IMG/VR virus record: IMGVR_UViG_3300013383_000028
Span: 18,873 to 82,872 of that record
Length of the DNA: 64,000 nucleotides
Source: a virus
Taxonomy: Duplodnaviria > Caudoviricetes
Strand: one strand, 5' to 3'
Position 1 is the first letter of the stretch. The number at the start of each line of letters is the position of its first letter. Made by a program: the position numbers and the translations under genes. The notes beneath the pieces are model-generated. The model ran no database searches and was not told where the DNA came from. It saw only the letters and a list, made by a program, of their open reading frames with translations. Shown piece after piece: positions 7,137-39,817 of this stretch.

Positions 7137-7211
7137 CCCACACCGGAGTAGCGGCGTGGAAGAGCTAGTGGAGCTAACGACACAGAAATGTGCCGTTAGC
7201 TCTTTTTCATT
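7137..7211 (+). promoter_or_regulatory. dual-hairpin + terminator RNA element, copy 1 (before head genes)
   Basis: CCG-GAGTAG-CGG hairpin, GAAGAGCTAGTGGAGCT, terminator stem + U tract; homologous to 23355 and 39741. Confidence 0.75.
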
Positions 7212-7233
7212 TTCACGGAAAGGAGACAACGAA

Positions 7234-7767
7234 ATGGCTCGACTGAAAGAACGGTTTGATTTTGAAAACGGTGCGCTTGCGGCTGTGAGAGATGCCGCAA
7301 AGGACGTGACCGGCACGTATCAGGATGCCGCTCGTGGGCTGGATACGCTGAAAGAATGGGTTCTGATTGAACTCGGAATGCCGAATACTGCTGACAAAAT
7401 TCACAAACTGGCTCATCTTCAAGCTCATCGCTTCGATGCCGTCGGAGACCTACTGCACCAGCGTCATATTCTGCAAATCTACCCTGCAACCGCTGAGTAC
7501 GACGGCCGGCCTGATGATCTGGACGGCGTATTTGAGTCCATCATCGACATGCTGCAAAAGATCGAAGACACGCTCCGCAAATGCGTGGAAGTCTGCGATG
7601 AAAACGGACTTTATCCGCTTGGCCGTGGCTTTGAGAACCTGCAAATGGAGAACAGCGCCAGCTATGAGAAGTTCCTGTATGCGTGGCAGATGTACTCCGA
7701 GCATGAAATGAGCGCGACCAGTTTTGATGGATGGATTGAAGAACTCTTCGAGGGAGAGGGTGACTGA
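7234..7767 (+). CDS. putative ferritin-like four-helix-bundle protein
   Basis: Helical 177-aa protein with E/H patterns (KEW, HKLAHLQAHRF, EVCDENG, ENLQMEN). Confidence 0.4.
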   Translation: MARLKERFDFENGALAAVRDAAKDVTGTYQDAARGLDTLKEWVLIELGMPNTADKIHKLAHLQAHRFDAVGDLLHQRHILQIYPATAEYDGRPDDLDGVFESIIDMLQKIEDTLRKCVEVCDENGLYPLGRGFENLQMENSASYEKFLYAWQMYSEHEMSATSFDGWIEELFEGEGD

Positions 7768-7769
7768 CG

Positions 7770-9182
7770 ATGCCGCTGACCAAAAACCAGAAGTCGATGG
7801 CGACCGGCCAACTCAAGGTGCTGCAAAGGCTGAATCCTTATGAGTTCGGCGTTGAACTGTGGCTGCTTAGAGACGGCGAGAACCGAAACAAGTGGTCGTA
7901 CCAAAACCTCGATAAATACTACAAAACGTTCGTTGGGCAGCCAATTTTGATCGCCTATGTCATGGGAAAGATCGGAGATGGCCACAACAGCCAGCTCAAG
8001 ACCGACCCCAGAACAGGCGAACAGTATTACTCCTACACGGACGGAACGGCGGAACGCATTGTCGGAACGCTGTCAGATGATGAACGTGATTTTTCCCTCC
8101 AACAGAGGGATGGTCGAACTTGGATTGTTGCGAAAGGCAGGCTCTTCGCTTTCTACGCGAAGGAAGCCGTAGACGAAATCGTGCGAACAGGGCGCATGGA
8201 TGTGTCTGTGGAAACGCTTACCTACGAATCCCACATGGAAGGTGACGTTGAAGTAATCACGAACTTCCGTGGGATGGGCGTAACCATCCTTGGGGCGGGC
8301 GTTGCTCCGGCTGTTCCGGGGGCCAACATCGCTCGACTTGCCGCAATGGACGAAGAATTTAAGACTTTGAAGCTCAAGGCGGCATCTTTGCAGAAGGCCC
8401 CGGATACAAACAACGCCCCGGATAACGGGAGCTTATCACACAAAGGAGTGAAAGACTTGAAAACTTATAACAAGAGACAGCTTGCGGAGCTTTCTGCTCG
8501 TTTCGAGGGTTATAAGGTTCTGGCCGCAGGCGAGAAGGACGGCAAGGTCTACGTCTGCACGCTGTCGAAGGACGGTGCTTACCAGTACTACGTCGTCGAG
8601 AATGCGGCCGAAACGATCGTCCCCGAACGTTTCCAGAATCTCACGGTCAACGCTGTCATGCAGATGGGCGAAGAGTCCGTTTCTATGGACTGCATTGAGT
8701 TCATGGAACTCATCGGCAAAGAAAACAGCACGCGGCTGAGTGCTGCAGAAGCCAAGGTGAACTCTCTGGAACAGGAACTTGCTGATACGGATGCAAAGCT
8801 CAAGGCCATGAAGGAGTTCGAAGACAAGCGCCGTCTGAACGCAGCCAAGGACAAGGCCATGGCTACCCTCGCGAAGTTCAATGCGAACCGCGAACAGAAG
8901 GTTGCAGACACCGAGATCTCTGCCATTCTGAGCGACATCGAAGCAGGACTGTACACCAACAGCTATGACAAGGATCAGAACTGGACTGGTGAAGTGGAAG
9001 TCGCAAAGGCCGTCTACGCCGTCTGCGGTGAAGCCGTGGAGAAGATGGACGCTGCCGCTGCGAGCCGCAACAAGCAGGTCTACGCATGGGACAAGTTCAA
9101 CCAGAACAGCGCGGGCGAGGACGATGGCAGCATCTCTGGCCTGTTTGCGAAGTGGGGCGTCGAAGCCGCCACTGAAAAGTGA
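7770..9182 (+). CDS. prohead protease/scaffold fusion
   Basis: N-terminal protease-like region (GDGH, DVSVET, GVTILG, PAVPGA), C-terminal coiled coil; lies before capsid genes. Confidence 0.7.
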   Translation: MPLTKNQKSMATGQLKVLQRLNPYEFGVELWLLRDGENRNKWSYQNLDKYYKTFVGQPILIAYVMGKIGDGHNSQLKTDPRTGEQYYSYTDGTAERIVGTLSDDERDFSLQQRDGRTWIVAKGRLFAFYAKEAVDEIVRTGRMDVSVETLTYESHMEGDVEVITNFRGMGVTILGAGVAPAVPGANIARLAAMDEEFKTLKLKAASLQKAPDTNNAPDNGSLSHKGVKDLKTYNKRQLAELSARFEGYKVLAAGEKDGKVYVCTLSKDGAYQYYVVENAAETIVPERFQNLTVNAVMQMGEESVSMDCIEFMELIGKENSTRLSAAEAKVNSLEQELADTDAKLKAMKEFEDKRRLNAAKDKAMATLAKFNANREQKVADTEISAILSDIEAGLYTNSYDKDQNWTGEVEVAKAVYAVCGEAVEKMDAAAASRNKQVYAWDKFNQNSAGEDDGSISGLFAKWGVEAATEK

Positions 9183-9199
9183 GAGAGGAGTGAAACGAA

Positions 9200-9781
9200 A
9201 TGTTTACTGAAAAAACTGCATTTGAGGCGCGCGTAACCAACAACTTCCGCGATGACCTCATCAACATCACCGGCAGATATCAGGCTTCCAGCGCTGATGC
9301 AGACTGCGATGCCGGCCGTCTGGTCGTTCGCAACGGTCAGCTTCCGTGCGAAGGCTTCACCGGCGTCAAGAACGAAAACGCGTGGTATATGAACGACGCT
9401 ACCTCTGCCACCACCGCTGGCGATGTCGTCTACGCTGCGAACACCTACGAAGTTCAGCTGCTTCAGGGCAAGAACGGCAACATGTATGCCGTCGGCACCG
9501 AGACCCTTGGACTTGGCATTCCGGCCGGCCGCGACGGCACCTTCACCAAGATCGTTTTCGACGGTGATCACGCATACCGATTCGGTATCGGCAACGTCAA
9601 CGCCGCAATCAGCACCAACACGTTCTTTACCATCGACGCAGGCCAGCTGAAGCCCGCCGCTACTGCCCCGACTTCGAACGGCGCTCTGTACTTCAAACTG
9701 CTCGGCACCGGCAAGTTCACCGAAGGCACCAACGCAAGCTTCGAGTACGTCGATGTACAGGCTTACAAGGTCTACGCATAA
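9200..9781 (+). CDS. putative head decoration protein
   Basis: 193-aa beta-rich, highly biased codons, between scaffold and capsid. Confidence 0.55.
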   Translation: MFTEKTAFEARVTNNFRDDLINITGRYQASSADADCDAGRLVVRNGQLPCEGFTGVKNENAWYMNDATSATTAGDVVYAANTYEVQLLQGKNGNMYAVGTETLGLGIPAGRDGTFTKIVFDGDHAYRFGIGNVNAAISTNTFFTIDAGQLKPAATAPTSNGALYFKLLGTGKFTEGTNASFEYVDVQAYKVYA

Positions 9782-9798
9782 GGAAGGAGTGAATCAAC

Positions 9799-11022
9799 AT
9801 GCCGAAAATTAATCTGAACAGCGTTCCTACGTCTGTTTTCATGGTCAACGCGTCCAACGATGAGCGCGCTGATATCGTCTCCAAGGGCAGAGTGCTCTTC
9901 TATGAGCATGCTGCGACCGGCAAGTCTGCCATTATGGCGGCAAACGGTCTGAACGCAAACAGCGTGCAGCATATGCTGACCCCGAAGGGCTATAAGGAAC
10001 TGAACGAAAAGTTCCAGTGCGAGCACCTGATGTACGCTGCAAAGGTCTGCTGCGCACAGACCGGCGAGGCCGCACCCGCGAACTTCGATGAGTTCAAGCG
10101 GAACGGCCAGCGGTTCTACGGCAACCCGGCGTTCTACCGTGTCCTTCAGGGCATCTATCAGGAGATCGTCACCCCGATCATCGCTTCCGTCTACTCTGAA
10201 GCTGTCGATCGCTTTGCCGATGTCGTTGAGGTCGGCTTTGGCGAGACCTACGCCATCTCCGTTGGCTCCAACGATATCCCGGTCTTCCAGGATTCCTCTT
10301 GGGGCGCGTCCAGAAGCGTTCCCAGCAACCGCTTCTACTCCAAGGACTATACGCTCAACCCGCAGCCCAAGACCGCACAGATCGTCGCAAAGTGGTTCCA
10401 GCTGGTCGGCAACAATCAGGACTTCGGCGTCTTCTTTGCCAACATCGTCGCTGGCATGTACGCGAAGACCATGGGCATGTGGAATGCCGCTCTGACCGCG
10501 GCTGCCGCAGACACGACCATGATTCCGGCAAACCTGAACTACACGTTCAGCAACCAGAACTGGCTCTCCGCTGCGAACAAGATTGCTGCCCTCAACAACA
10601 CGGTTACGACCAATCTGTTTGCGACCGGCTCTGCTGTCGCTCTCGGCAAGGTTCTCCCCACGCAGGCGACTGGCACCACCAACGTCAACATGGATGCTGC
10701 GCTGGCAATGCTGCTCGGCGAACGCTACAACAGCACTGGCATGCTGGGTGAGTTCCTTGGTGTGCGTCTGATGCCGCTGCGTGATGCTGTCAGCCCGATC
10801 GGCCTGAACACCGCCCCGACTACCATCCTGTCTGCAAACGACATTTGGATGATGGCCGCGAACAGCAGAAAGCCGATGACCATCGCTTACAACTCCGCGA
10901 CGCCCATCACCCTTGAGATCGATCCCACGCGGGCATCTGACTTCTCTGTGGGAATCAATCTCACCATCGCGCTTGATTCTGTCTCTGTGTTTTCTAGCCG
11001 TATTGCCCATTTTACGATTTAA
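9799..11022 (+). CDS. major capsid protein
   Basis: 407 aa, strongest codon bias, canonical position, followed by GC-rich hairpin. Confidence 0.8.
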   Translation: MPKINLNSVPTSVFMVNASNDERADIVSKGRVLFYEHAATGKSAIMAANGLNANSVQHMLTPKGYKELNEKFQCEHLMYAAKVCCAQTGEAAPANFDEFKRNGQRFYGNPAFYRVLQGIYQEIVTPIIASVYSEAVDRFADVVEVGFGETYAISVGSNDIPVFQDSSWGASRSVPSNRFYSKDYTLNPQPKTAQIVAKWFQLVGNNQDFGVFFANIVAGMYAKTMGMWNAALTAAAADTTMIPANLNYTFSNQNWLSAANKIAALNNTVTTNLFATGSAVALGKVLPTQATGTTNVNMDAALAMLLGERYNSTGMLGEFLGVRLMPLRDAVSPIGLNTAPTTILSANDIWMMAANSRKPMTIAYNSATPITLEIDPTRASDFSVGINLTIALDSVSVFSSRIAHFTI

Positions 11023-11074
11023 GCGTTCCTCCTTTTGCGGGGCGGGTATCACCTCCGCCCGTCCCGCAGCATAT

Positions 11075-11121
11075 GGTTCTACATGGCGCAGTAAGAAACG
11101 GTTCGAGTCCGTTCGGAGCCA
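11075..11121 (+). ncRNA. minimal tRNA-like structure (acceptor stem + T arm)
   Basis: GGTTCT/GGAGCC stem enclosing AACGG-TTCGAGT-CCGTT T arm; no anticodon arm. Confidence 0.45.
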
Positions 11122-11166
11122 ACATCAGTGGAGGAAAAGCCATAAAATCTGAAAGGAGTGTGCGAT

Positions 11167-12081
11167 ATGGCTGAAAGCAAGAATACTGGTAAGAAACCCG
11201 GAAGACCGAAGAAGACCCCTGTGGTTGAGGAAGCCAAGGAAGAAGTGGTTTTCTTCGATGTCCCAGAAGAACAGACTGTAAATACCGCGGAGAAAGCAGA
11301 ACTGGCCGAAGAGAATGTTCTGACTGTCAATGCGGATGATGTGACGGGAATCAGCTATGACGGCAGTGAGACCCCGCTGACCGAACTGGCTCCCGAACTG
11401 AAGGGTGAGGAAGTCGAAGTTCCCACGGAAGCAATCGTTCACGAAGAAGCCAAAACACCGCAGGCAGAGCCGACGTTTACGATGGCTGACGTGCAGAAGA
11501 TGGTAGCAGAGGCTGTTGCAAAGGCAACTGCGGAGATTCAGGCAAAGACCACTACCGTCCCGCAGATTGTGCAGGTCGCGAATGATACCGAAATGGTGCA
11601 GTTCCTGTGGCAGGCGGAAGTTTCCGTCGACAATACCATCGCATTCGGCGAGGGCGGAATCTACGGTCAGATCACCGGCAAGACCGGAAGCTTCTATGTC
11701 CCAAAAAGAGACCTGTCCAGAGTGCTTTCGGAACTCAATCGCTACTTCCTGAAGAAGCGTTGGCTGATCGTAGTCTCTGGCCTGAACGAAGAGGAGCGGG
11801 AAGCGCTCGGCGTCAACTATAAAGAAGGGGAGATTCTGGACAAGAAGGCCTTCGCGAAAATGGTTGAACTCGGCGATCAGATGCTGGAAATCTATCCGAA
11901 CCTCTGCGAAGGTCATAAGAAAATGGTCGCGCAGCGGTATGCGGATGCGTACCATGATGGCAGCCCCTACGTGACGAGAGACATCGTGGTCAAGCTCAAT
12001 GAAATGAGCAAGACAGCCAAGAACCAGAAGGGCGATTTCGTCGCCATTATCGAGGAAATGAACGCGCGAGACGCGCAATAA
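11167..12081 (+). CDS. hypothetical virion-associated protein with acidic low-complexity N terminus
   Basis: SD AAGGAG; about 304 aa. Confidence 0.65.
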   Translation: MAESKNTGKKPGRPKKTPVVEEAKEEVVFFDVPEEQTVNTAEKAELAEENVLTVNADDVTGISYDGSETPLTELAPELKGEEVEVPTEAIVHEEAKTPQAEPTFTMADVQKMVAEAVAKATAEIQAKTTTVPQIVQVANDTEMVQFLWQAEVSVDNTIAFGEGGIYGQITGKTGSFYVPKRDLSRVLSELNRYFLKKRWLIVVSGLNEEEREALGVNYKEGEILDKKAFAKMVELGDQMLEIYPNLCEGHKKMVAQRYADAYHDGSPYVTRDIVVKLNEMSKTAKNQKGDFVAIIEEMNARDAQ

Positions 12082-12122
12082 GCATTGCGCCGCATGTGGG
12101 CGCAGGAAAGAGGTATTGAAAC

Positions 12123-13118
12123 ATGAGTAGTCCTATCTATAGTGAGTTTTCCTTTGTGCCTGCGTCCGCATACGCGGCTGGTAAGAACGTTTTGCCGGAT
12201 ATCCGCACGGCAGTCCAGAATAACTTCTCTGGCCTTGAGTGGAGCGGTTCGGAAGCGGATATTCTCGGCGTTGAAATGCAATCTGCGGCGGCTTTTACTG
12301 TGAAGCTCAACCGAGAGACGCAGCTGGCGGCGGTGCAGGAAGGTTCGGTCTATACCGTTAAATACAATGGCCCGATTGAATATGTCGTATTCAGCGCGGC
12401 CACCACGCTCACCTATTTCCACGTTCGGTGGGCAATGCAGAACAAGACGCATGGTGTCGTAACACTCACGACCGTATCTGGCGCTGCAATCTCGCGCGGC
12501 GGATACGAAGTGCCCACCGTTGATACCGGCAAATATGAACTGGCTATTGGCGGCTATGTCCTTACCGCAGACGGCGTAAGAACGACGTTCTTCTATAACC
12601 TTGAAAGCACTCTGACTGTGAGATTCAGCATTGAAAGTGCTGATGTGACGGTCGGACCTGCGCTGACCTATACGGGCGGTGAACAGGAAAAAACTGTGAC
12701 AAGCGTGAAAGTGGGCACAAAGACCCTTACCGTCAACACCGACTACACTGTGTCTGGCAATACAGGCACAAACGCCGGCGCATACTCTCTGAGAATCGAC
12801 GGTATTGGCAGCTACAAGGGCACAATCATCGCCCCGTGGACAATCGCAAAGGCAGCGGCTGGACTGAGCGTTACGCCGGAAGCCCTTGATATGTCTGCCG
12901 GCGCAAGCGATACCTTCAAGATCGCGACCAGTTCCAACGGAACGATGCACATTGAGAACAGCAATCCGGATGTCGCATCGTTTGGAGAAGTGGACGAAAG
13001 CTCGAACGTCACAGTGGAAGCGCTGGCTGCGGGTGAGACGGTTATCACTGTCGCGCAGGATGAAAACGAAAACTATCTGGCAGGACAGGCACAATGCACT
13101 GTCACTGTCGCGGCTTAA
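12123..13118 (+). CDS. Ig-like domain virion protein
   Basis: T/V/G-rich beta repeats (DYTVSGNTGTNAGAYSLRIDGIGSYKG; SSNPDVAS-type Big_2 motif). Confidence 0.6.
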   Translation: MSSPIYSEFSFVPASAYAAGKNVLPDIRTAVQNNFSGLEWSGSEADILGVEMQSAAAFTVKLNRETQLAAVQEGSVYTVKYNGPIEYVVFSAATTLTYFHVRWAMQNKTHGVVTLTTVSGAAISRGGYEVPTVDTGKYELAIGGYVLTADGVRTTFFYNLESTLTVRFSIESADVTVGPALTYTGGEQEKTVTSVKVGTKTLTVNTDYTVSGNTGTNAGAYSLRIDGIGSYKGTIIAPWTIAKAAAGLSVTPEALDMSAGASDTFKIATSSNGTMHIENSNPDVASFGEVDESSNVTVEALAAGETVITVAQDENENYLAGQAQCTVTVAA

Positions 13119-13141
13119 TATAGAAAGGCGGCGGTCACATC

Positions 13142-13291
13142 ATGGACAGCAAGGAACGAATTGAAGCTCTGTGCGGCATCATTGAATCTCTTTTGCTTCT
13201 CATTGAAGATGAGACTGCCGCCGACTGTATCCGGGAGGAATACCGAAACACGATGGACAATTCTTCCTATGAGAAGGAGGAATGGGACTGA
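13142..13291 (+). CDS. small hypothetical protein (49 aa)
   Basis: MDSKERIEALCGIIESLLLLIEDE..., stop overlaps next start. Confidence 0.5.
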   Translation: MDSKERIEALCGIIESLLLLIEDETAADCIREEYRNTMDNSSYEKEEWD

Positions 13292-14004
13292 TGGGGACCT
13301 CTTGGAGCGATATCATTACAAATCATGCCATGGTCATCATCGGCGATGAGCGAATGACGGATGACCTCAGAACTGATGCGGCGCTTTTCTTTCGCCGTAT
13401 GAGCGCTTGGGTCGGTATGGCAATCCCAATGCTGAAAAGCCCGCCTGAACTGCAAGCGTACCTGACGGACGGGCTTGTAGAGCCACAATACGCCGATTTC
13501 GACTGGGTAAGCGACCAGACCAGCACAACGCAGGAAACGGTCCTGCAAACCGGCAAGATCGGCTATGAGCTGTGCAGCTGTGTGACAGTGCAGTATGCGC
13601 GGAATGGAGACGCAACGTTCTTCCCGTGCTTGGACTTCACGTATGACGCAGAAACCGGAACTGTGACATTCCCTCAGCAGGATAACGCGGGAACCGAGTA
13701 CCGGCTGGACTTCTATACGGACGGCCAGTTCCCACATGATCTGACGCTCCGGCAGAAGCGGCTTCTTGGACTGGCAATCGCGGTGACGTGGGATAACCGG
13801 TTCAACAGAGAATGGCTGAACATTCAGCCGAAGGTCAAGGACAAGAGCTTCAACACACCGAACGAGAACACGACGATGAAGGAATCGACCGCGCGGTATA
13901 AGGAAAACTTGCAGGTTTTCTATTCGGAACTGCGCGGGTACGAACAGGAATGCGCCTACATGAACAGGGTGAATCCCATGCGGCGCGTGTTTTCCATGCT
14001 GTGA
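13291..14004 (+). CDS. putative head-tail adaptor
   Basis: Synteny after capsid block. Confidence 0.45.
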   Translation: MGTSWSDIITNHAMVIIGDERMTDDLRTDAALFFRRMSAWVGMAIPMLKSPPELQAYLTDGLVEPQYADFDWVSDQTSTTQETVLQTGKIGYELCSCVTVQYARNGDATFFPCLDFTYDAETGTVTFPQQDNAGTEYRLDFYTDGQFPHDLTLRQKRLLGLAIAVTWDNRFNREWLNIQPKVKDKSFNTPNENTTMKESTARYKENLQVFYSELRGYEQECAYMNRVNPMRRVFSML

Positions 14005-14032
14005 TGACGAAACGAAAGGACGGTTTGACATC

Positions 14033-16995: not shown

Positions 16996-17013
16996 GCGGA
17001 AGGAGGAGTGTAG

Positions 17014-17472
17014 ATGGCGATTACCAGTATACCGAAAACAAACATGAGCGTATCGTTTGCGATGACGTCAGCGATACCAGCAGAGTACAATGCCTACTTC
17101 AACTCCCTCGAAGAAGCAGAGGCAGCTGCCGCCATGGCTGGGCCTCCGGGTTCCACAAACACTGTATACTACTACTGTCAAGTGCTTCACGTTCTGACAG
17201 ATACAACGGCAGACCTCTACGTAATCCAGCCAAATAAGACTTTGAAGTACATTGGCTCGGATGCATCAGGCGGTTCAGATAAAAGTTTTGTGTTTACGCA
17301 AAGCGTAGCGGCTGCAAAATGGGAAATTCAACACAATTTGGACAAATACCCGTCCGTATCTATCGTGGACAGCGCAGGAACAGAAGTAGTAGGAGACGTG
17401 CAGTATACAGATCAAAACAACATTGTGATACTGTTTACCGCGCCGTTTTCCGGAAAAGCATATCTCAACTAA
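17014..17472 (+). CDS. hypothetical structural protein
   Basis: SD GGAGG; C-terminal W.I.HNL.KYPSV...D motif common in phage fibre modules. Confidence 0.55.
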   Translation: MAITSIPKTNMSVSFAMTSAIPAEYNAYFNSLEEAEAAAAMAGPPGSTNTVYYYCQVLHVLTDTTADLYVIQPNKTLKYIGSDASGGSDKSFVFTQSVAAAKWEIQHNLDKYPSVSIVDSAGTEVVGDVQYTDQNNIVILFTAPFSGKAYLN

Positions 17473-17496
17473 ATTTATGAGAAGGAGAAATTACTC

Positions 17497-19029: not shown

Positions 19030-19081
19030 TGAAGCAATGCCTCCCGCGTGAAATACCGTGGGAGGCTAACTTGGAGGAACT

Positions 19082-20212: not shown

Positions 20213-20228
20213 TGAGTGAGGTGATAGC

Positions 20229-22646: not shown

Positions 22647-22647
22647 A

Positions 22648-23354: not shown

Positions 23355-23431
23355 CTGTGCCGAAATGGCGGCACAGAAGAGCTAATGGAGCTGTGAACGC
23401 AGGAGAACTGCGTTTGCGGCTCCTTTTGTGT
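23355..23431 (+). promoter_or_regulatory. dual-hairpin + terminator RNA element, copy 2 (before tail genes)
   Basis: CTGTGCCG-AAATGG-CGGCACAG, AAGAGCTAATGGAGCT, terminator stem + TTTT. Confidence 0.75.
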
Positions 23432-24342: not shown

Positions 24343-25473
24343 ATGATTCGTTTTACTGATTCCCGTCTTTATGCAAAAGGCATCGGCGAAGCAATCTGCA
24401 CCGATAAGACTACCGGCCAGATTCTGTACTTCTCCAACAAGTTCCAGACCGGTAACGTGACGCCGAGCGTCACCATCGGTGAAATCCGCGCCGGTCTTGG
24501 CAACGCTATCGCGACTACGCTTCCTTCCGACGCTTCCGTCAACGTAGAGTTCACGGCGGCTGACTTCAACCTGTGGGCAAAGGCCGCGCAGATGGGCGCA
24601 ATGCTCCGCCACAACGCGCCAGTTATGGTTTGCCAGACCGTTACCGCTGATGGCACATTGCTTTCCATCGACATCACCGAGGGTACGCCTGTCGCGCAGA
24701 AGGGCTTCTCCAAGATCTTCTGCTATGTACAAGAAGTCGGTGCTGCTTCTCCGATTGCGACCGGCGGCGTATCTTACGACCTGAACCCGACTACCGGTGC
24801 AGTCACTGGATTTACCGCGACGTCCGGCAAGACCTACAAGGTCTTCTACTTCGTCAACAAGGCCACTGCACAGATCGCAACCATCACCACGGCAATGGAC
24901 CCGAAGGTCGTTCACTTCATCGCAACGGTTGCGGTCTTCTCCACTGCTTCCGGCTCCGCACAGAACGAGGGCACTCGCGTTGGTACGCTGTACATCATCA
25001 TCCCGTCTCTGAAGTTCGGCGCGAACGGCGGCGTCACTGGCGACCAGACCAGCAACGATACTACGTCCCTGTCTGGTCAGGCAATCGCGTATGACCCGGA
25101 TGTCATCACTGACGGCTGCGATGAATGCACCGGCGCAGGCAGCGACCTTGCGTACTACATCTACCAGCCGTGCGGCTCTGGTGTTGAGGAAATCGAGGGT
25201 GTCGTTGCCAGCATCGGCGGCATTTCTCTCAAGGCGTCCTCCACCTATCAGATGCAGCCGCGTATCGCCATGAAGAATGGCGAGCTGGTCAAGGGTGACG
25301 CGAATACCTTCACCTACACTGCGACTGGCGCTCCCGAGGGCACGACCGTTGGTGCAAACACTGGCCTTATCACGGCCGGCGCTACTGCCGGTGACTTCAC
25401 GGTTGAGGTCAGCTATACCGCAGGCGAGTCCACGTTCAAGGACACCTGCGAGGTCGAGGTCACTTCGGCCTAA
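24343..25473 (+). CDS. major tail protein with C-terminal Ig-like domain
   Basis: Strong codon bias like the capsid gene, T-rich, two genes before tape measure. Confidence 0.7.
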   Translation: MIRFTDSRLYAKGIGEAICTDKTTGQILYFSNKFQTGNVTPSVTIGEIRAGLGNAIATTLPSDASVNVEFTAADFNLWAKAAQMGAMLRHNAPVMVCQTVTADGTLLSIDITEGTPVAQKGFSKIFCYVQEVGAASPIATGGVSYDLNPTTGAVTGFTATSGKTYKVFYFVNKATAQIATITTAMDPKVVHFIATVAVFSTASGSAQNEGTRVGTLYIIIPSLKFGANGGVTGDQTSNDTTSLSGQAIAYDPDVITDGCDECTGAGSDLAYYIYQPCGSGVEEIEGVVASIGGISLKASSTYQMQPRIAMKNGELVKGDANTFTYTATGAPEGTTVGANTGLITAGATAGDFTVEVSYTAGESTFKDTCEVEVTSA

Positions 25474-25588: not shown

Positions 25589-26053
25589 ATGTCGATTGAA
25601 GATTTCGTGATTAAATTCAACGCCGCGCTTGACCAGTCCATTCACAGAGCAATGGAAGGTCCTGTGACCGACAGCGTAAAAGCGGCTATTACAGAAGCCG
25701 TTCAGACAGAAGTCTACGACGCCTACGAGCGCGGGGATTATCTTCCGTACATACGCCGCGACGAGGTAGGCAAGACCGGTGGCCTTCAGGACTGGAACGT
25801 TATGGAGTCGAAGTATGACCCGTCGACCATGACGCTGGAAGTCCAGAATATGAGCCGTGACGATGATACTGGACGTTTGATTGCGCCGGTTGTAGAAAGC
25901 GGCAAGGGATATCAGTGGAAAAAGTCGACGATTTACAAAACAAAGCAGCCGCGCCCATTCCACAAAGAGGCTCAGAGCATGGTAATGCGTGAGGGTATGT
26001 TCTCGGATGCCCTTCGGTACCAGCTCAAAAGAGACGGATTCGACCCTAAGTGA
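25589..26053 (+). CDS. putative tail component (HK97 gp10-like)
   Basis: GGAGG SD; C-terminal PRPF motif. Confidence 0.45.
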   Translation: MSIEDFVIKFNAALDQSIHRAMEGPVTDSVKAAITEAVQTEVYDAYERGDYLPYIRRDEVGKTGGLQDWNVMESKYDPSTMTLEVQNMSRDDDTGRLIAPVVESGKGYQWKKSTIYKTKQPRPFHKEAQSMVMREGMFSDALRYQLKRDGFDPK

Positions 26054-26068
26054 TAGGAGGAAGATTGA

Positions 26069-31267: not shown

Positions 31268-31287
31268 AACGGAACGGAGGAAAGATT

Positions 31288-34200
31288 ATGCTTTATCAGC
31301 CGACAAACGTATACCCTAGTCTGACCGGCGCACTCGGGAACGGCGTTGTGGATGCCAACAACAATCTGACTGTGAGCTGGCAAGTAAACGGTAACTCCGC
31401 ACTTCAAATGTTCTCCATTACCATTTATAAGAACGACACCGATTCTACGCAGGTATACTCGACCGGAATACAATCCAAGGGATGCCCGTTCTACGGAACG
31501 GACTATGCTGGAAATGTCCATTTCTTCAGCTATACGATTTCTGCGGCTGCTCTTGCAACAGCTGGCATCGTGAACGGTGAGAACTATAAGATTAAAATCA
31601 AGCAGTGGTGGGGCATCGGAGAGTTTGTCGACCAAACATCTCCGAGTGCGTTCATCACGCGCGCCACGCCGTCCATTGCGGTCGATGTTGTTCCAACCCC
31701 ACTGAAACAGAGAAGCTATACGTTTTACGCGACCTATACGCAAGCGCAAAGCGATGCATTGAACTGGGTCCGATGGGAACTGGAAAACGAAAACGAAGGA
31801 GACACCGTTGATGATACCGGGAAAATTTACGGCACATCACAGCTACAGTATGCGTATGATGGATTCGCGGATGGGCACGTGTACTATATTCGGTGCACCA
31901 TTCAAACAGAAAATGGAGTTGAAGCGGCAAGCAACTGGGTCGGATTTCTTGTCTCCTATGAAACATCCGAACTTCCTGGAGAATTTCTTGCATGCCAAAG
32001 CATCAGAGGTAACGGCGTAAAGCTTGCTCTCCCAACGGCCAAGGACATACCGGCTGAAATTGAGGGGAACTACGATATTGCAAACAGCATTGCCAGACTG
32101 CAAAACGGCACTATTGCGAAGTGGGCAGCTGTAAATGGCGTAAAGATGTCACTCGAAGCACCATTCAACTTTGTGTGGAAGGGAAAAATGAATGCGATTG
32201 GGCCGTTTGCAGAAGTGATTGGAGACGGTCAGAGCTATTCTGAAATAACTGTCAAGTCAGAATCGAACGACATTGCATTCACCTCGGCAAATAACCTTCC
32301 ATTTTCCAACGTCGAATCCCCGTCTGTTTGCTATGGAGTTGGCAAATATGTCATGGCATGCTCTGCGGGGCTGGCGTATTCCGCAGATGGTATTACATGG
32401 ACGGCCATTTCTGATGACGAGATTGCCCCTAATACAGGCTGGAGTGTGTGCTTCAAAGGCCCAACGCTATACTCCGAAGCAATTTTCTACGCCGTTGCAG
32501 CGGATGGAACGCTGATTTACTCCCACGACGGTGTAAACTGGACATACGCGAAATCGTTTACAAAACAGTGCAGGCGTATATCGTTTGCAAACGATTCATT
32601 CTTCGTGACGTACCTGAATAGTGGGATTGCAAGGTATAAAGATGGAACCGACGAGTGGGAAGACATCAATATGCCGAACGTTGGATATTACTCCGTCGCA
32701 TACGGCAATGGCGTATACATCGCAACAAATGCAGATGAGATTGCATATTCGTATGATGGCACCAATTGGAGTGCAATGAGCGTGCCGAGGGCAACCGTTA
32801 AAAGTGCATGCTATGGGAACGGCGTATTCATCGCAATCAACGACAATGAGGAAAGCAGCACAGGACTGTACTCCTATAACGGGAGAACATGGCATGTGCT
32901 TACGCTTCCCACAACCGCTGTTTGGAACGCTATCACGTATGGCAACGGAATATTCATGCTCGTCGGTGACAATGACGTCCGGACATCGGAAGATGGATTC
33001 TCATGGAGTGCGAATCTTAATTCAAGCGCTGCATTTGCCGCAGCTTGCTTTGGAAACGGGAAGTTCTCTATAATCCCGTCGTCCGCATCTGGCGCACTTA
33101 TTACGAATGAGATCACAAAAACAATCTCCCTACAGTTCGATGACACGACAATATTGTCAACACAGATTCCAGAAAGCGAAGAAATGGCAATCCTTGTGGA
33201 CGATACAACCGCCTACGTATCGGTAGACAAAGGAAATCTAACATGGGATAACGGAAGTGTGCCTGCTGCTGTAAACGGAAGCACCGGCGTACAGGTCTGT
33301 TACGGGAATGGACGGTACGTCGAAGTTTCATCCTACGGTAGCGCACTGTATAGCGATGATGGAGAGACGTGGCTGCAATCGAACTCGTATGGAGATTACC
33401 CGGGAAGTTATTCCAACTCGAACCTCTTGTATGCGAACGGAAAGTTCTACGCGTTCCAGTACTCGAATCCGGGTTATGCAATGCGTTCCACTGACGGTGT
33501 GACGTGGGAACAATTTACCACGAACGTTACAGAAACCGGATTTGAAAGTGTCATTCATGACGGGGCAAAGTTCTGCGCAGTCGGGAATAATAACTACATT
33601 TATACAAGTACGGATGGCCAGACTTGGACGCATAAAGGGACAATAGATGCAGAGAACTGCCTTTGTGTCCGGATGATTTTTGCGAACGGAACATATGTGG
33701 TGCTGCTTGACGATACAACAGGATACGCTTCAAGAATTGCGCGCTCGAAGGATCTCATAAATTGGACGTTTAAGTTCGCAAGCGATTTCTCATGGGAAAA
33801 CCCGTTGATGCGAAACTGGGGGCTACAGATACATGACGGAACTTATGGAAATGGGCGCTTCGTCGTTTCTGGTGGTTCCCTCTATCAAGATGCTTATTAC
33901 CACGCAGTTACCATACAAAGCGAAGACGGCGAGAACTGGACAGCATCTGAACGCACGAACATCGGTACTGATACACGTATCACGTTTTACCGGAGTAAGT
34001 TCCTCATGTACTCCTCTGGCGCACTTAATGAAGCTATTATAAGTAATGATGGCGTTAACTGGGAATACGTCTATTTTCCGTATCGAGGAACATTCACCGT
34101 ATGCGCAGGAGATAAACTCATCGCATTTGAGGGTGACAGCAGCGCTGCGGCCTATTCGGACGGAATCATTGATATCAAGTCAGCGAGCATAGGCGTGAAC

Positions 34201-35058
34201 TTTGACAAGATAACCCGCATCGTACTGAATGGATTCCAAGAATGCGACTATGTGTTTGTGTCTGACGGGAACCTTTCTGCGACGCAGAAGGAAACCATCC
34301 TATACAACTATTCGTACCATCCAAGAGATATCCAAGCGCTATTCTATGCGGATTTCGATTCTGGCACGAACGCAGGCGGATTCGGGAACACCGGCGTGAC
34401 CGATTTCGCAATCTATCGAACTTCACCCGGAAACGATGACAAGCTGATGCATGTCTATGATATTTCCGTCGGAGATGGTGATGTCGTGATCGACGCAAGC
34501 GCTGCGACAGGTATCCCGTATGTGTACTATGCATACGAAATCGGCTCTGGCGCTACCGGCGTGCTGGAAAGCAATCAGATTGCTACATGCATATGGGACT
34601 GGTCGATCCTCTCCTGCACGCAGGATACAGATGGAGCCTATCACCCGCAGCAGATATTTACGTTCGGGAAAAACCTGACGACCGGTGACATCAGCAACAA
34701 TAATACTCCGCAGATCATACAGAACTTCACGCAGTACCCGACCATTCAGATGGCACCGTTCAACTATAAGAGCGGAACCCTGACAAGCCTGATCGGCGCA
34801 ATTGTTGACGGGAAATACTCCGATACGGCAAAGCTTAGAAATGAAATATTGGTGCTTTCTACGACCAGCAATACACTGTTCCTGAAGAGCCGAAAAGGCG
34901 ACATCATGAAGATCAGAATCAGCGGTCCGATTGAGTATTCGATGCTTGACAATTCTTTCACGCAGGCACAAACGGTCAAGGTTCCTTGGGTAGAAGTCGG
35001 CGATGCGGATGATAACAGGATCATCATAACGAAGTATGATACCACATGGCCTTACTGA
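31288..35058 (+). CDS. distal tail/baseplate protein with inserted beta-propeller repeats
   Basis: Follows TMP; many YGNG.F.. and S.DG..W BNR-like repeats. Confidence 0.65.
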   Translation: MLYQPTNVYPSLTGALGNGVVDANNNLTVSWQVNGNSALQMFSITIYKNDTDSTQVYSTGIQSKGCPFYGTDYAGNVHFFSYTISAAALATAGIVNGENYKIKIKQWWGIGEFVDQTSPSAFITRATPSIAVDVVPTPLKQRSYTFYATYTQAQSDALNWVRWELENENEGDTVDDTGKIYGTSQLQYAYDGFADGHVYYIRCTIQTENGVEAASNWVGFLVSYETSELPGEFLACQSIRGNGVKLALPTAKDIPAEIEGNYDIANSIARLQNGTIAKWAAVNGVKMSLEAPFNFVWKGKMNAIGPFAEVIGDGQSYSEITVKSESNDIAFTSANNLPFSNVESPSVCYGVGKYVMACSAGLAYSADGITWTAISDDEIAPNTGWSVCFKGPTLYSEAIFYAVAADGTLIYSHDGVNWTYAKSFTKQCRRISFANDSFFVTYLNSGIARYKDGTDEWEDINMPNVGYYSVAYGNGVYIATNADEIAYSYDGTNWSAMSVPRATVKSACYGNGVFIAINDNEESSTGLYSYNGRTWHVLTLPTTAVWNAITYGNGIFMLVGDNDVRTSEDGFSWSANLNSSAAFAAACFGNGKFSIIPSSASGALITNEITKTISLQFDDTTILSTQIPESEEMAILVDDTTAYVSVDKGNLTWDNGSVPAAVNGSTGVQVCYGNGRYVEVSSYGSALYSDDGETWLQSNSYGDYPGSYSNSNLLYANGKFYAFQYSNPGYAMRSTDGVTWEQFTTNVTETGFESVIHDGAKFCAVGNNNYIYTSTDGQTWTHKGTIDAENCLCVRMIFANGTYVVLLDDTTGYASRIARSKDLINWTFKFASDFSWENPLMRNWGLQIHDGTYGNGRFVVSGGSLYQDAYYHAVTIQSEDGENWTASERTNIGTDTRITFYRSKFLMYSSGALNEAIISNDGVNWEYVYFPYRGTFTVCAGDKLIAFEGDSSAAAYSDGIIDIKSASIGVNFDKITRIVLNGFQECDYVFVSDGNLSATQKETILYNYSYHPRDIQALFYADFDSGTNAGGFGNTGVTDFAIYRTSPGNDDKLMHVYDISVGDGDVVIDASAATGIPYVYYAYEIGSGATGVLESNQIATCIWDWSILSCTQDTDGAYHPQQIFTFGKNLTTGDISNNNTPQIIQNFTQYPTIQMAPFNYKSGTLTSLIGAIVDGKYSDTAKLRNEILVLSTTSNTLFLKSRKGDIMKIRISGPIEYSMLDNSFTQAQTVKVPWVEVGDADDNRIIITKYDTTWPY

Positions 35059-35078
35059 ACGAAACGGGGGTGCTTTGA

Positions 35079-37352
35079 ATGTCATTTTCGATAAGCTTTA
35101 TGGCGCGGACGCAAAGAAACATCAGGGTAACGGCGGCTGACGTAAGCTGGGCTGAAAACAGTTCGTACAGAATGCATTGGCTGCTCACCGCAAACGGAAG
35201 CGATATCAGTGAAGGATGGGTTGGATATTCGGAGTCGAGCGTATACTTGTTCGACTTCGGAAAATCCTACTACGAACCAGGACAATATCAGGTTACGGCA
35301 CGCCTCTATGAGGGCACGACATTTATTGAGCTGCAAAGAGAATCCTTTGAATTTCCGTGCAATGTAAGCATATACGCAAATGACGGAAGTGGGGATTCGC
35401 AGGAAGAAAGCGTCAGCTACGGTACAACTTATACCATCCCAGAATGCCCGTTCTCAGCTCCATCCGGAAAAACATTCGCAGGATATGCCGGTACTGCCAC
35501 TGCAACGACCGCGCAGTGGCAGCCCGGACAGACAACCACAGTGAACGTAGACCGCGACTTTTACTGCGTTTGGGCTGATATACCCGTAGAGACGTACACA
35601 ATCACCTATGACGCGAACGGCGGATATGGTGCGCCTCCGCAGCAGACGGTCGACGGCATTTATATTATAATAAGTGATACCGTCCCAACAAGGAGTGGAT
35701 ACACATTTGCCGGATGGATGGGCGTCGGAGCTACTTCAGGCCAAGAAGTATGGCGGCAGCCCGGTCAGGCTCTGGGAAACATCACAGAGGACTATACGTT
35801 CACTGCCGAATGGTATGTCTACGCAATTACGGCGATTGCAGGAGATTACGTATCAAGCGTTTCCCGTGAGTGGCATGGCCTCCCATATATCGACTATCTG
35901 GGGAATACGTACACCTCTTCTCGGCTGACGTGCCAGCTCGCATCTCCGACTGGGTATACCGTCTCCTTTGATGGCTGGTATGATTCCAACGATTCAAAGG
36001 TTTCAAGCAACCAGACATACACCGTCTCAAATCTGACAAGCGACATCACCCTTACGGCAAAAGCAACTGCAGTAGCATTGCCAACGTACACCGTAACGTA
36101 CCGCCCCGGAACAGATGGGACAGGATCTGTGCAGACGGATACAAAAATCGAAAATGTGACTTTGACGTTGAAAGGCGCTGTGTTTACCCGGAGCGGTTAC
36201 GAGCAGAATGGTTGGGCAACTTCCGATGGCGGAACTAAAGCATACGAACTCGGAGCGCAGTACACAGCAAACGCGGCTATCACACTGTATCCGACGTGGA
36301 AAAGCACTGCAGTAGAGATCGGCAGTCTTGATACGGGAAGCATCGTAAAACTCAATGTGAATGGGTCCCCAGTCGAGTTTATAGTCGTGAATCAGGGAAT
36401 CCCGGAAAACAGTTCACTGTATGACGCCAGCTGCAACGGAACGTGGCTGCTGATGAAGGACATTTACGAGAACCGCGCTTGGAATGGAACGGATGTAAAC
36501 AACTACGCAGCCAGCGATCTGAATACGTACTTGAACAATACGTTCTTTGCTTCGCTTGGTTCCAAGGAAAAAAATGCAGCGATGCAGGTCAAACTTCCAT
36601 ATGGTGACGGGACATCTGTGATTTCTGGTGCAAATGGCGTTGCGGCAAAGACGTTCCTCATATCTGCAATTGAGCTAGGACAAAGTGCTGCAGCTACAGA
36701 GTACAAAGCAAATTTCGCAGATAACACTTGGGCGGAAATCATCGAAGCATGCCAGACCAACAGCGTCCCGGATACATGGGTTGTTGGAGATCAGAAGACG
36801 ATGAGCATCGGTGAATCGTACAAGATCAATATCATAGGCAAGAATCACGACACCTATTCTGACGGCTCCGGCACTGCACCGCTGACTTTGCAGATGCATG
36901 AGGTTTATAATCTCTCAACCAAGATGAGCAACGACGCTTCCAACGCTGGTGGCTGGAAAGATTCTATTGTTCGTACTACCACAATGAATACACTTTTGAA
37001 CGGGATGCCGGATGAAGTCAAGGCAGCCGTGCGCGAGGTATCCAAGCTGACCAGCGCCGGACAGGGGAGCGAGACGATCGTAACGACGGCAGACAAGCTG
37101 TTCATTCCTTCAGAGGTGGAGATCACCGGCTCGGCGGAACACAGTGCACCGGGCGAGGGCACGCAGTACCCGTATTATGAGACGCCTGCGAATCGGATGA
37201 AATATACTCGCAATGATGTAAACACCGAGTGGTGGACACGCTCGCCGGTGTACCAACAAGGCTGGAATTACGTAGGGTTCTATCAGAGCGGAAACGCATA
37301 CGGCGCGCAGGCAAATAAGGCCCTGCGCGTGGCGGCGGCATTCTGTTTCTGA
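35079..37352 (+). CDS. receptor-binding tail protein: InlB B-repeat-like units + DUF6273-like lectin domains
   Basis: YT.TY.ANGG..F.GW repeats; C-terminal WWTRSP...AAAFCF domain. Confidence 0.7.
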   Translation: MSFSISFMARTQRNIRVTAADVSWAENSSYRMHWLLTANGSDISEGWVGYSESSVYLFDFGKSYYEPGQYQVTARLYEGTTFIELQRESFEFPCNVSIYANDGSGDSQEESVSYGTTYTIPECPFSAPSGKTFAGYAGTATATTAQWQPGQTTTVNVDRDFYCVWADIPVETYTITYDANGGYGAPPQQTVDGIYIIISDTVPTRSGYTFAGWMGVGATSGQEVWRQPGQALGNITEDYTFTAEWYVYAITAIAGDYVSSVSREWHGLPYIDYLGNTYTSSRLTCQLASPTGYTVSFDGWYDSNDSKVSSNQTYTVSNLTSDITLTAKATAVALPTYTVTYRPGTDGTGSVQTDTKIENVTLTLKGAVFTRSGYEQNGWATSDGGTKAYELGAQYTANAAITLYPTWKSTAVEIGSLDTGSIVKLNVNGSPVEFIVVNQGIPENSSLYDASCNGTWLLMKDIYENRAWNGTDVNNYAASDLNTYLNNTFFASLGSKEKNAAMQVKLPYGDGTSVISGANGVAAKTFLISAIELGQSAAATEYKANFADNTWAEIIEACQTNSVPDTWVVGDQKTMSIGESYKINIIGKNHDTYSDGSGTAPLTLQMHEVYNLSTKMSNDASNAGGWKDSIVRTTTMNTLLNGMPDEVKAAVREVSKLTSAGQGSETIVTTADKLFIPSEVEITGSAEHSAPGEGTQYPYYETPANRMKYTRNDVNTEWWTRSPVYQQGWNYVGFYQSGNAYGAQANKALRVAAAFCF

Positions 37353-38098
37353 TGGGAAAGGAGATTGAGCAATGGAAGAAAAAGCACTAGACGGTGCGAA
37401 ACTTGCGTATTTTCCAACGGCTGAATCAGGGAGGAATAACGCATACATCGCCTATCTCAACGGAACCGCATCAAAGTGGTGGACGCGAACGCCGACTGCA
37501 TCTGGGACAGAAACCGTATGGCTTCAGAATGAAACTGGTGACGGGGCATTTGCCTCGCCGACCACCGAAAATGGTATTCGGCCGGCTCTCGTCTTGGAAT
37601 CGTCAACGCTTGTAATTGAGCAGGATGACGGCAGCTATTCGATTGCCGGATCTTATACCATCACGTATGTGCCGGGCGCAAACGGGACCGGAAGCGTACA
37701 GACTGATTCGAAGGTTGAGGGATCATCCATCACACTGAAGAGCGCGATATTCACGCGCAGCGGATATGAGCAAACAGGTTGGGCTACATCTGACGGCGGA
37801 AGCAAATCATATGATCTTGGCGCGCAGTATACAGCAAATGCAGATGTCACGCTTTACCCGTTCTGGACAGCTACTGTTTCGTACTATACTGTTACCTATA
37901 GGCCGGGAGCCAATGGAACCGGAGCCGTGCAAACAGACCAAAAGACGTCCGGTGTACCGCTCGCACTGAAAGGCGCGATCTTTACACGAAATGGGTACAC
38001 GCAGGCCGGATGGTCGACTACTGACGGCGGAGCCATCGAGTATCCGCTGAACGGGCAGTATACCGAAAATGCTGATATAACTCTGTACCCATACTGGA
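36085..38098 (+). repeat. three related ~210-bp repeats encoding InlB B-repeat-like units (~36085, ~37655, ~37885)
   Basis: YT.TY.PG..GTG.VQTD.K......LK.A.FTR.GY.Q.GW.T.DGG...Y.L..QYT.NA..TLYP.W repeated. Confidence 0.75.
36705..37386 (+). other. 676-bp cassette bounded by AAAGCA direct repeats, nested in a lectin domain
   Basis: AAAGCA at 36705-36710 and 37381-37386, both at codon start; removal fuses the two ORFs in frame. Confidence 0.55.
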
Positions 38099-39402
38099 AG
38101 AGCAATGCACCTGACTTGGAGCCGCCTCCGGAACAGGCTGCCGCTGTGGAGCATGCGAAGAGGACGGCAGATTATCTAAAACAGCTTCGAACGCCGTTTG
38201 TAAAGCTGTGCCGTTTGCGGTTCCTGCAGCCGGACGGCAGCACGGCATTTGCAATCGACAACAACCCACTCAATCGACGCAGCGGAACCTTTATCCAAGA
38301 GGGAAGCATCTCTGGAAATCTGCAAAACGGCCAGCGCAGAACGGCAAGCATCACTCTCTCGAATGTTGATGCAGAGTACGATTATAACGTGAACAACGTC
38401 TGGTTTGGGCAGCAGATTGCACTTGATGAAGGCCTGATTCTTTCGGATGGATCGGAATACTATATCCCACAGGGCATTTTCTACATTCAAGATCCGCAGG
38501 AAACGCTCAATCCGAATCTCCGAACAATGACATACCCTCTTGTTGACAAATGGGCATACCTCGATGGTACGCTTTTCGGCCGACTTGAAGCCACATACGA
38601 AGTTCCGGTCGGGACGAATATTTTTGAGCCGATAGCATCGCTGCTGTCTCTCGACAAGGGCAATGGGTATAAGGTCGATAGTGTCCCTCCTATTTTTACG
38701 GAGTATTATAACGAGAAAACACAGGTGCTTCCGAGTGGGGAAACAGTGTCTCTGGCGGTTTCTCCGTATACCATGCGCGTCGATAGCGATGACGGAACGT
38801 ATGCAGACGTCGTACTTGGCATGTCGGAAATGGTGAACGCGTGGGTTGGCTACGATAACACAGGCACACTGCGCGTAGAACCTTCCCAAGACGATATCGT
38901 TGACACGAACAAACCTGTTTTGTGGAGATTTTCTTTGGCCGAAGCACAGCTCATAGGCGCAACTTACACAGTCAAAAACACAGAGGTCTTCAATGACTAC
39001 ATCGTTTTGGGCGAACAGACCGATGACAGTCCGCAGGCATCCGGACGCGCACAGAATTTAGACCCAAGCAGCGACACGAACGTGAATATCATCGGCCGGA
39101 AAACCTATCGCGAGACGGCTTCTGGATACTACACGGAAACACAGTGCCGCGACTTGGCAGAGTGGAAACTAAAACGTGCGACAGTTCTACAGAAGGCAGT
39201 ATCAATTTCTTGCATACAGATGATGCATATATTTGAGAACAGCCTTGTGGAGATCGTCAGGACGGACAAACCCGGTTCTCCGGTAGAGCGGCATTTGATT
39301 CAAGGCTATACGCGCCCACTGACGAGCAACGGAACCATGACAATCAACGCTGTATCGGTCGCAGATTTCCCAATCGCGACGATTACAAGCTGGCCGGAAT
39401 GA
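37372..39402 (+). CDS. baseplate hub/Tal-like protein with N-terminal half lectin domain and InlB B-repeat-like units
   Basis: N-term DGAKLAYF...WWTRTP...GIRPAL; two 70-aa repeats; C-term hub-like region. Confidence 0.65.
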   Translation: MEEKALDGAKLAYFPTAESGRNNAYIAYLNGTASKWWTRTPTASGTETVWLQNETGDGAFASPTTENGIRPALVLESSTLVIEQDDGSYSIAGSYTITYVPGANGTGSVQTDSKVEGSSITLKSAIFTRSGYEQTGWATSDGGSKSYDLGAQYTANADVTLYPFWTATVSYYTVTYRPGANGTGAVQTDQKTSGVPLALKGAIFTRNGYTQAGWSTTDGGAIEYPLNGQYTENADITLYPYWKSNAPDLEPPPEQAAAVEHAKRTADYLKQLRTPFVKLCRLRFLQPDGSTAFAIDNNPLNRRSGTFIQEGSISGNLQNGQRRTASITLSNVDAEYDYNVNNVWFGQQIALDEGLILSDGSEYYIPQGIFYIQDPQETLNPNLRTMTYPLVDKWAYLDGTLFGRLEATYEVPVGTNIFEPIASLLSLDKGNGYKVDSVPPIFTEYYNEKTQVLPSGETVSLAVSPYTMRVDSDDGTYADVVLGMSEMVNAWVGYDNTGTLRVEPSQDDIVDTNKPVLWRFSLAEAQLIGATYTVKNTEVFNDYIVLGEQTDDSPQASGRAQNLDPSSDTNVNIIGRKTYRETASGYYTETQCRDLAEWKLKRATVLQKAVSISCIQMMHIFENSLVEIVRTDKPGSPVERHLIQGYTRPLTSNGTMTINAVSVADFPIATITSWPE

Positions 39403-39415
39403 GGAAGGGGGTGCA

Positions 39416-39595
39416 ATGATGGCTGAAAAGAAGGCTGCGCAATACATCCTCAAACTCAAAACGGGAGAAATCTTCGATGTGAAGAAGGAAACGAACCTGT
39501 ACTGGATCTGCGAAGGTACGCAGTTCAAAAAGACAAGCAGGCAGATCGAACGTGTGACACGGCGAAAAGCCAGAAAGGGCGTAAACGATGAGTGA
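39416..39595 (+). CDS. small hypothetical protein (59 aa)
   Basis: Hand-translated MMAEKKAAQYILKLKTGEIFDVKKETNLYWICEG...; purine-rich SD. Confidence 0.55.
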   Translation: MMAEKKAAQYILKLKTGEIFDVKKETNLYWICEGTQFKKTSRQIERVTRRKARKGVNDE

Positions 39596-39740
39596 GATTG
39601 GTCCCGTCCTCAACAACCATGGAGCAAAACCGTGCAGCTCATTCACCGACACAGCATACGGAATCAGCGCCTGTATTCATTTCTTCTGTGGTAAGTGGAT
39701 TCCACCTCCCCATGCAGACTGCGCAACAATTGAATAATCC

Positions 39741-39817
39741 CCGCACCGAAGTGGCGATGTGGAAGAGCTAGTGGAGCTACAAGCGCGAAGTGAAGCCGCG
39801 TTTGCGGTTCCACTTTT
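39741..39817 (+). promoter_or_regulatory. dual-hairpin + terminator RNA element, copy 3 (before lysis genes)
   Basis: CCGCACCG-AAGTGG-CGATGTGG, AAGAGCTAGTGGAGCT, terminator stem + TTTT. Confidence 0.75.

Follow-up and report, generated by a model that had tools for sequence, protein, structure and literature searches.

gut-2 RNA elements sharing bases with intrinsic terminators in the late operon of a temperate gut phage, and a tiny phage-encoded protein as their candidate antiterminator

The stretch of DNA analysed here (the window, 64,000 nucleotides (nt)) comprises bases 18873-82872 of an 82.9-kilobase (kb) IMG/VR virus record that is 87% complete (IMGVR_UViG_3300013383_000028). Three near-identical dual-hairpin units are located on its + strand (7138-7214, 23355-23431 and 39741-39817), within a long block of + strand phage genes. 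In each unit a first hairpin (P1) is followed by a smaller second hairpin (P2) that shares bases with an intrinsic terminator, and each dual hairpin matches gut-2, an RNA family listed in Rfam. A tiny open reading frame (ORF) lies directly ahead of the first unit; its product, of 59 amino acids (aa), may be the protein that acts on all three. These features were delimited as follows:

6912-7091 (+): tiny ORF of 59 aa ahead of copy 1, the candidate trans-acting gut-2-binding antiterminator.
7138-7175 (+): gut-2 copy 1; P1 at 7138-7159 with loop GAGUAG, P2 at 7163-7175 with loop AGUGG.
7170-7214 (+): intrinsic terminator 1; stem at 7170-7203, of which 7170-7175 is common with P2, then UUUUUCAUUUUC.
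23355-23392 (+): gut-2 copy 2; P1 at 23355-23376 with loop AAAUGG, P2 at 23380-23392 with loop AAUGG.
23387-23431 (+): intrinsic terminator 2; 16-base-pair (bp) stem at 23387-23423, of which 23387-23392 is common with P2, then UUUUGUGUU.
39741-39778 (+): gut-2 copy 3; P1 at 39741-39762 with loop AAGUGG, P2 at 39766-39778 with loop AGUGG.
39770-39817 (+): intrinsic terminator 3; stem at 39770-39813, beginning within the P2 loop, then UUUU.

The units have the sequences described in an earlier note on this DNA, and a 17-nt core, GAAGAGCTARTGGAGCT, occurs exactly three times, always on the + strand (7159, 23376 and 39762). No further site was found at three or fewer mismatches, and none of 100 dinucleotide shuffles attained three hits. 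P1 consists of 8 bp closing a 6-nt loop, with one internal mismatch in copy 1 and one in copy 3. A (G)AAG linker leads to P2, a 4-bp hairpin (AGCU/AGCU) with a 5-nt ARUGG loop in all copies. The last two Gs of the P2 loop and the 3' arm of P2 form the 5' arm of the terminator, an overlap that the earlier note had also pointed out. The predicted terminator strengths were -20.8 (copy 1), -28.1 (copy 2) and -23.6 kcal/mol (copy 3).

Folding was predicted with ViennaRNA. When the RNA was cut after P2, P1 and P2 both folded; when the whole unit was supplied, P1 and the terminator formed and P2 was dissolved (-33 to -44.5 kcal/mol; z -3.6 to -8.3). In these folding predictions P2 and the terminator are therefore mutually exclusive, in agreement with the earlier note.

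The RNA is a known but orphan motif. All three copies matched Rfam family RF02990 (gut-2) by cmscan: copy 2 scored 47.5 bits, above the gathering score of 39.8, and copies 3 and 1 scored 30.5 and 25.8 bits, below that cut-off, with full-length alignments and E-values of 1e-4 and 0.0016, respectively, in a 401-nt search. The copies resemble the RF02990 model in P1 (8 bp, AAUUGG-type hexaloop), in the GAAG linker and in having a 4-bp P2 with a like loop; they differ from it in their P2 loop of 5 nt (ARUGG) in place of 6, and in their AGCU/AGCU P2. The model itself includes neither the overlapping terminator nor a partner protein. RF02990 belongs to the motif set of Weinberg et al. 2017 (PMC5737381), and gut-2 is not mentioned in the main text of that paper. 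Rfam types the family as 'sRNA' and gives no function. Searches of the later literature on gut-2/RF02990, RAGATH-35 and DUF3800-VIII found nothing relevant. Contrary to what had been supposed, the element is thus not new, but the family to which it belongs carries no assigned function that would compete with a role as a switch.

The wider family was sampled with two IMG/VR pattern scans, from which about 54 true loci were retained. Covariation gives strong support to P1: 94% of cells were paired, compared with 69% in shuffles and 18-45% in slid controls; double-sided changes were present in 7 of the 8 pairs, and shuffles equally good were never obtained (0/500). The overlap with the terminator is seen throughout the family: the minimum-energy terminator includes the entire 4-nt P2 3' arm together with the two loop Gs in 27 of the 28 distinct instances examined. 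Among 45 strictly parsed distinct instances, the P2 5' arm, the P2 3' arm and the 3' segment of the terminator covary three ways (for example GACU/AGUC/GGCU, GACC/GGUC/GGCC, AGCU/AGCU/AGCU, GGCU/AGCC/GGCU and AGUG/CACU/AGUG). Two sequences that vie for one partner, and continue to do so through sequence change, are the mark of an antiterminator/terminator switch. The loops follow the pattern AAU-N-GG, in which position 4 may be A, C, U or G and G5 and G6 are conserved; the commonest P1 loops are AAUUGG, AAUCGG and AAGUGG, and the commonest P2 loops AAUAGG, AAUCGG and AGUGG. A covariance model built from one subclass only (R1) was overfitted and scored the window copies poorly, so the Rfam model was used instead. 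Two other explanations of the loops were considered and dropped: T-box-like pairing of a loop UGG with the CCA end of a tRNA, because loop position 4 parts the U from the GG, and CsrA-type GGA sites, because GGA is absent from most loops.

The units are placed at intervals along a + strand gene block that spans approximately 1988 to 45061. A megablast search of 9 kb against GenBank phages returned no match. The remaining features of this block, and of the region in front of it, are listed in order:

1855-1971 (+): near-consensus promoter (TTGCAT, 17-nt spacer, TGgTATAAT) that runs directly into a leader hairpin.
1917-1964 (+): leader terminator hairpin (-32 kcal/mol, U7 tract), followed by the ribosome-binding site and ATG (1988) of the packaging/late operon.
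First part of the + block: TerL-sized ORF, portal gene (phrog_2739), the 59-aa ORF (6912-7091) and copy 1.
Middle of the + block: head-region genes without annotation, copy 2, three more genes and a 1732-aa ORF of tape-measure size.
Last part of the + block: large tail genes, copy 3, holin-like ORFs and the endolysin gene.
39849-40426: holin-like ORFs, downstream of copy 3.
40696-42213: CHAP/NAGPA/SH3 endolysin gene, downstream of copy 3.

Within the late operon (1988-42213), the only strong + strand terminators are the three linked to gut-2. In all three copies the distance from the U tract to the next ribosome-binding site is 8-25 nt; after terminator 1, the ribosome-binding site and the ATG at 7234 follow directly and leave no space for a promoter. 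Given this spacing, none of the head, tail and lysis blocks has its own promoter, and their transcription requires read-through, in agreement with the earlier note, which had regarded the units as dual-hairpin/terminator switches gating these blocks. The names given to the blocks are reasonable: lysis genes follow copy 3, copy 1 is placed after the portal gene and copy 2 is located three genes ahead of the 1732-aa ORF. The head and tail genes themselves, however, carry no family annotation.

The opposite strand carries a block with an integrase, a helix-turn-helix (HTH) repressor, Rha/Ant proteins, a stand-alone Spo0A_C protein, a PemK toxin and four tRNAs. The phage is temperate, and its host belongs to the spore-forming Clostridia. 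The Spo0A_C protein (119 aa, 54576-54932, - strand; PF08769, E 2.8e-25) consists of the C-terminal DNA-binding domain of Spo0A and lacks the receiver domain. The early region in which it is encoded also contains the PemK/MazF toxin and a class-V aminotransferase (47985-49067).

The tiny ORF has a GGAGGG ribosome-binding site 6 nt ahead of its ATG and overlaps the portal stop codon. It was found by listing the ORFs that end at the gut-2 motif, which form a family of 41-66 aa. Clustering of five whole phage genomes by all-vs-all BLASTP and hidden Markov model (HMM), with ORFs of at least 50 or at least 30 aa, had missed it: only HTH repressors and integrases were common to all. Relatives of the tiny ORF differ mainly at third codon positions, and the ORF is the sole match to the family HMM in the 82.9-kb record (E 3.5e-18). 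The family core is a helix followed by ...G(H/N)(R/N)x(E/Q)(V/I)K..KDG(T/S)hxVxEVxK...., and the protein is small and basic. An exhaustive profile search gave 406 family representatives at 50% identity; among the 150 representatives listed, nearly all are 42-82 aa, with the domain C-terminal. No Pfam or NCBIfam model matched the tiny protein, and PHROGs returned function-unknown entries only (phrog_12756 for the window). AlphaFold2 (135 sequences) predicted a helix (7-18) and a beta-hairpin (22-27/33-38) with a pLDDT of 76. No significant match to a solved structure was obtained (best Foldseek E 0.57, best VIA-align Z 2.6), and the ESM Atlas contained unnamed clusters only, at 0.80. A profile search of the PDB matched only WD40 'DGTIKV' segments, which were rejected as spurious.

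The same domain also forms the C-terminal end of some longer proteins (P0060, P0088, P0009 and P0090). P0060 has a double CxxC zinc ribbon at its N-terminus and P0088 an HTH region; the P0088 gene (locus L114) is still trailed by gut-2 and a terminator.

The RNA and the tiny gene are tightly associated, whichever of them is used as the anchor. Starting from the RNA, almost all viral loci whose upstream sequence is long enough have a tiny ORF that stops 3-47 nt ahead of the motif, and each of the five whole phage genomes (30-60% G+C) has exactly one member by the family HMM. Starting from the protein, 32 loci were found by protein pattern in named genomes of gut Clostridia and gut-2 was counted with the Rfam model: an RF02990 match (E <= 0.01) adjoins the gene in 26, and 3 more look like diverged copies. 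The strict gut-2 regular expression recovered 7 of these 32 loci, because P1 length varies. The named carriers include Blautia, Dorea, Sellimonas, Eubacterium ramulus, Roseburia, Faecalibacterium, Dysosmobacter and Lawsonibacter. Rank sampling gave seven further representatives for which DNA could be inspected: gut-2 and a terminator lie directly downstream in five, one contig ends within P1, and one has no such unit.

A relative of the window phage at 30-55% identity (G002) also carries three gut-2 copies. Its tiny gene is the first gene after the late promoter and is located 5 kb upstream of the first copy, which argues for one gene serving several sites in trans. The module is a portable gate rather than a head-specific device: single modules elsewhere precede a DUF2213 (XkdF-like) head gene, a GP20 scaffold gene or, in the genome G001, a late regulator with sigma-70 region 4.

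Several further observations were made around these modules. In many subfamilies the stop codon of the tiny gene lies within the P1 5' arm or a few nt from it (L112, 341-388; L106, 1342-1389), so that a terminating ribosome would unfold P1. In the window (7061-7126, +), a hairpin like Rfam RF03075 (DUF3800-VIII; 36.7 bits, cut-off 40.2) overlaps the final 30 nt of the tiny ORF and stops just ahead of copy 1; it is kept in relatives (L006, L007, L009 and L036; 36.7-40.1 bits). Other orphan motifs of the 2017 set adjoin the modules in gut Clostridia (L115-L118, L121-L125, L108, L128, L112): RAGATH-35 (RF03056, up to 110 bits) directly upstream of the tiny gene, skipping-rope and GP20-b motifs in L128 and an HTH-XRE motif in L112. 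A tRNA gene is found approximately 50-100 nt past the gut-2 terminator in several unrelated loci (L106, L126, L135-L137, L139, L140). In L108, the tiny gene and two gut-2 hits stand beside an IS66 transposase and SNF2-helicase/AAA genes, which is not a phage structural context.

An antiterminator that binds the twin loops, as the earlier note had envisaged, is the best explanation of these units, and the tiny ORF is its phage-encoded candidate. We consider it somewhat probable that the tiny protein binds both loops, holds P2 and blocks the terminator, each unit being a conditional intrinsic terminator within one long late operon. By default, the weak 4-bp P2 would be displaced by the 14-17-bp terminator, and RNA polymerase would halt after the segment with the packaging, portal and tiny genes. 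The 59-aa protein would be made from this first segment and would accumulate; it would then bind the two like AAUNGG-type loops of P1 and P2, probably as a dimer, so that neither the loop GG nor the P2 3' arm could pair with the 3' arm of the terminator. The leftover stem of 9-12 bp would be parted from the U tract, and polymerase could go on to transcribe the head, tail and lysis blocks in that order. Copies 2 and 3, in which the linker and P2 are identical, would be opened by the same tiny protein. Stepwise release of head, tail and lysis expression is plausible on this scheme; that differences in P1 quality and terminator strength stagger the release at the three copies is conjecture.

Some observations weigh against this scheme. 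The P1 loop of copy 1 (GAGUAG) deviates from the AAUNGG consensus, and several of the protein-anchored loci have no detectable gut-2 (L109, L138 and L141). No fold or family match marks the tiny protein as RNA-binding, and its top, non-significant Foldseek rows are the DNA-binding lambda and Pfl6 Cro proteins. The phage record is only 87% complete. Finally, the promoter and leader terminator at 1855-1971 are not gut-2-like and look like a separate first gate of the pR'-tR' type; if this gate is processive, polymerase might pass the gut-2 terminators with no help from the tiny protein, and the part played by gut-2 would need rethinking.

This last point leads to an explanation by processive antitermination, in which polymerase would be modified once at the late promoter and leader terminator, in the manner of Q, or gut-2 and the tiny protein would ride along with it like lambda nut and N; the gut-2 terminators would then stop only unmodified polymerase, for example in a lysogen. 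A strong promoter with an immediate -32 kcal/mol terminator ahead of the operon is the classical pR'-tR' layout, which recurs ahead of the tiny gene in G002 (24925-25025, L096), and the tiny protein resembles N in being small and basic. A processive mechanism needs no overlap between RNA site and terminator, yet all subfamilies retain the overlap with its three-way covariation, and no Q, N or NusG-like gene was identified, the aimed searches having covered only ANTAR, CAT and HutP. We judge this explanation improbable.

We hold it to be similarly unlikely that gut-2 is simply the 3' end of the upstream transcript, either a stable small RNA or a 3'-untranslated region element, which the tiny protein binds to control its own mRNA or another target while the terminators act as constitutive partial attenuators that set gene dosage. 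The Rfam class 'sRNA' would fit, as would the conserved single-stranded GAAGGNCCAAU exposed in the terminator state and the many loci in which the motif adjoins or overlaps the stop codon of the tiny gene. On the other hand, copies 2 and 3 of the window and all three copies of G002 are not beside a tiny gene, and a plain 3' end would have no use for a conserved P2 in competition with the terminator.

ANTAR proteins are found in many Clostridia, which counts in favour of a host factor (an ANTAR regulator or an RNA-binding protein of another kind) binding the twin loops, the tiny protein then being unrelated to this RNA. The architecture of the units is indeed that of ANTAR substrates (PMC3369931), but their loops lack the defining G4 and the motif accompanies the tiny gene in phages that range from 30 to 60% G+C, which leaves this explanation little probability. 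A role of the repeats as DNA-level operators, bound by a tiny protein of Cro-like kind, is very improbable: the resemblance to Cro in Foldseek and Pfam is weak and its matches are not significant (E about 0.6), and the stems change freely with compensation while the loops stay fixed, a signature of RNA hairpins and not of operator half-sites.

Returning to antitermination by the tiny protein, a broader proposal can be made, to which we give even chances: gut-2 and the 41-66 aa phage proteins would constitute a self-contained, two-part antitermination module, the protein gene usually being fused to its own RNA target and terminator, that is widespread in temperate phages of gut Lachnospiraceae and Oscillospiraceae. 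Where several copies are present, they would form a late-operon relay in which the first segment must be expressed before the head, tail and lysis genes are released. Neither the functional reading nor the protein partner seems to have been described in the literature searched. If the proposal is true, an orphan Rfam family gains a function and a protein partner, and the tiny proteins become a fourth, very small family of RNA-binding antiterminators beside CAT, ANTAR and HutP, and the first of these to be phage-encoded. It would also account for the way in which structural and lysis genes are kept off in many temperate phages of the dominant human-gut Clostridia. With about 45 nt of RNA and about 45 aa of protein, the module is compact and could serve as a portable expression switch for Firmicutes; cultured carriers exist in Blautia, Dorea, Sellimonas intestinalis BR72, Eubacterium ramulus and Roseburia.

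Among known systems, the closest phage parallels are lambda N/nut (boxB) and HK022 put, in which hairpins of the phage transcript permit terminators to be read through and, in the case of N, the protein is small and basic. Those systems differ in acting processively, from RNA sites that share no bases with the terminators that are suppressed; put needs no protein, and neither system is related to gut-2 and its protein in sequence or fold. In the CAT antiterminators (BglG, SacY and LicT, which bind RAT) and in HutP, a protein on the nascent RNA, at a site overlapping the terminator, stops the terminator from forming (PMC12591593), and binding of the same kind is proposed here. RAT consists of one imperfect hairpin and HutP recognises UAG repeats, in contrast to the twin hairpins of gut-2. 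The 2025 review of RNA-binding antiterminators just cited treats CAT, ANTAR and HutP, and the words 'phage' and 'bacteriophage' are absent from it. None of the three domains was detected in the 82.9-kb phage record (87% complete) at E <= 10 (ANTAR, PF03861; CAT, PF03123; HutP, PF09021).

The earlier note had called the units ANTAR-like, and in architecture they are. As in the substrates of EutV, NasR and AmiR, two short hairpins with like loops are present, and the second shares nucleotides with an intrinsic terminator; several copies may be distributed through one operon, as in E. faecalis eut, and the ANTAR binder is thought to be dimeric. The likeness does not extend to the loops or to the protein. 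The ANTAR RNA signature consists of hexanucleotide loops with A1 and G4 (PMC3369931), whereas gut-2 loops have A1, a variable position 4 and conserved G5 and G6, and the P2 loops of the window are pentamers. The candidate binder is a helix and beta-hairpin protein of 41-66 aa, not a three-helix ANTAR domain on a signal receiver, and the search for an ANTAR domain in the phage record was negative. The ANTAR label is therefore not supported, and the earlier interpretation is partly supported, being right in kind and wrong in family: the gut-2 unit would work like an ANTAR or RAT system and belongs to neither family.

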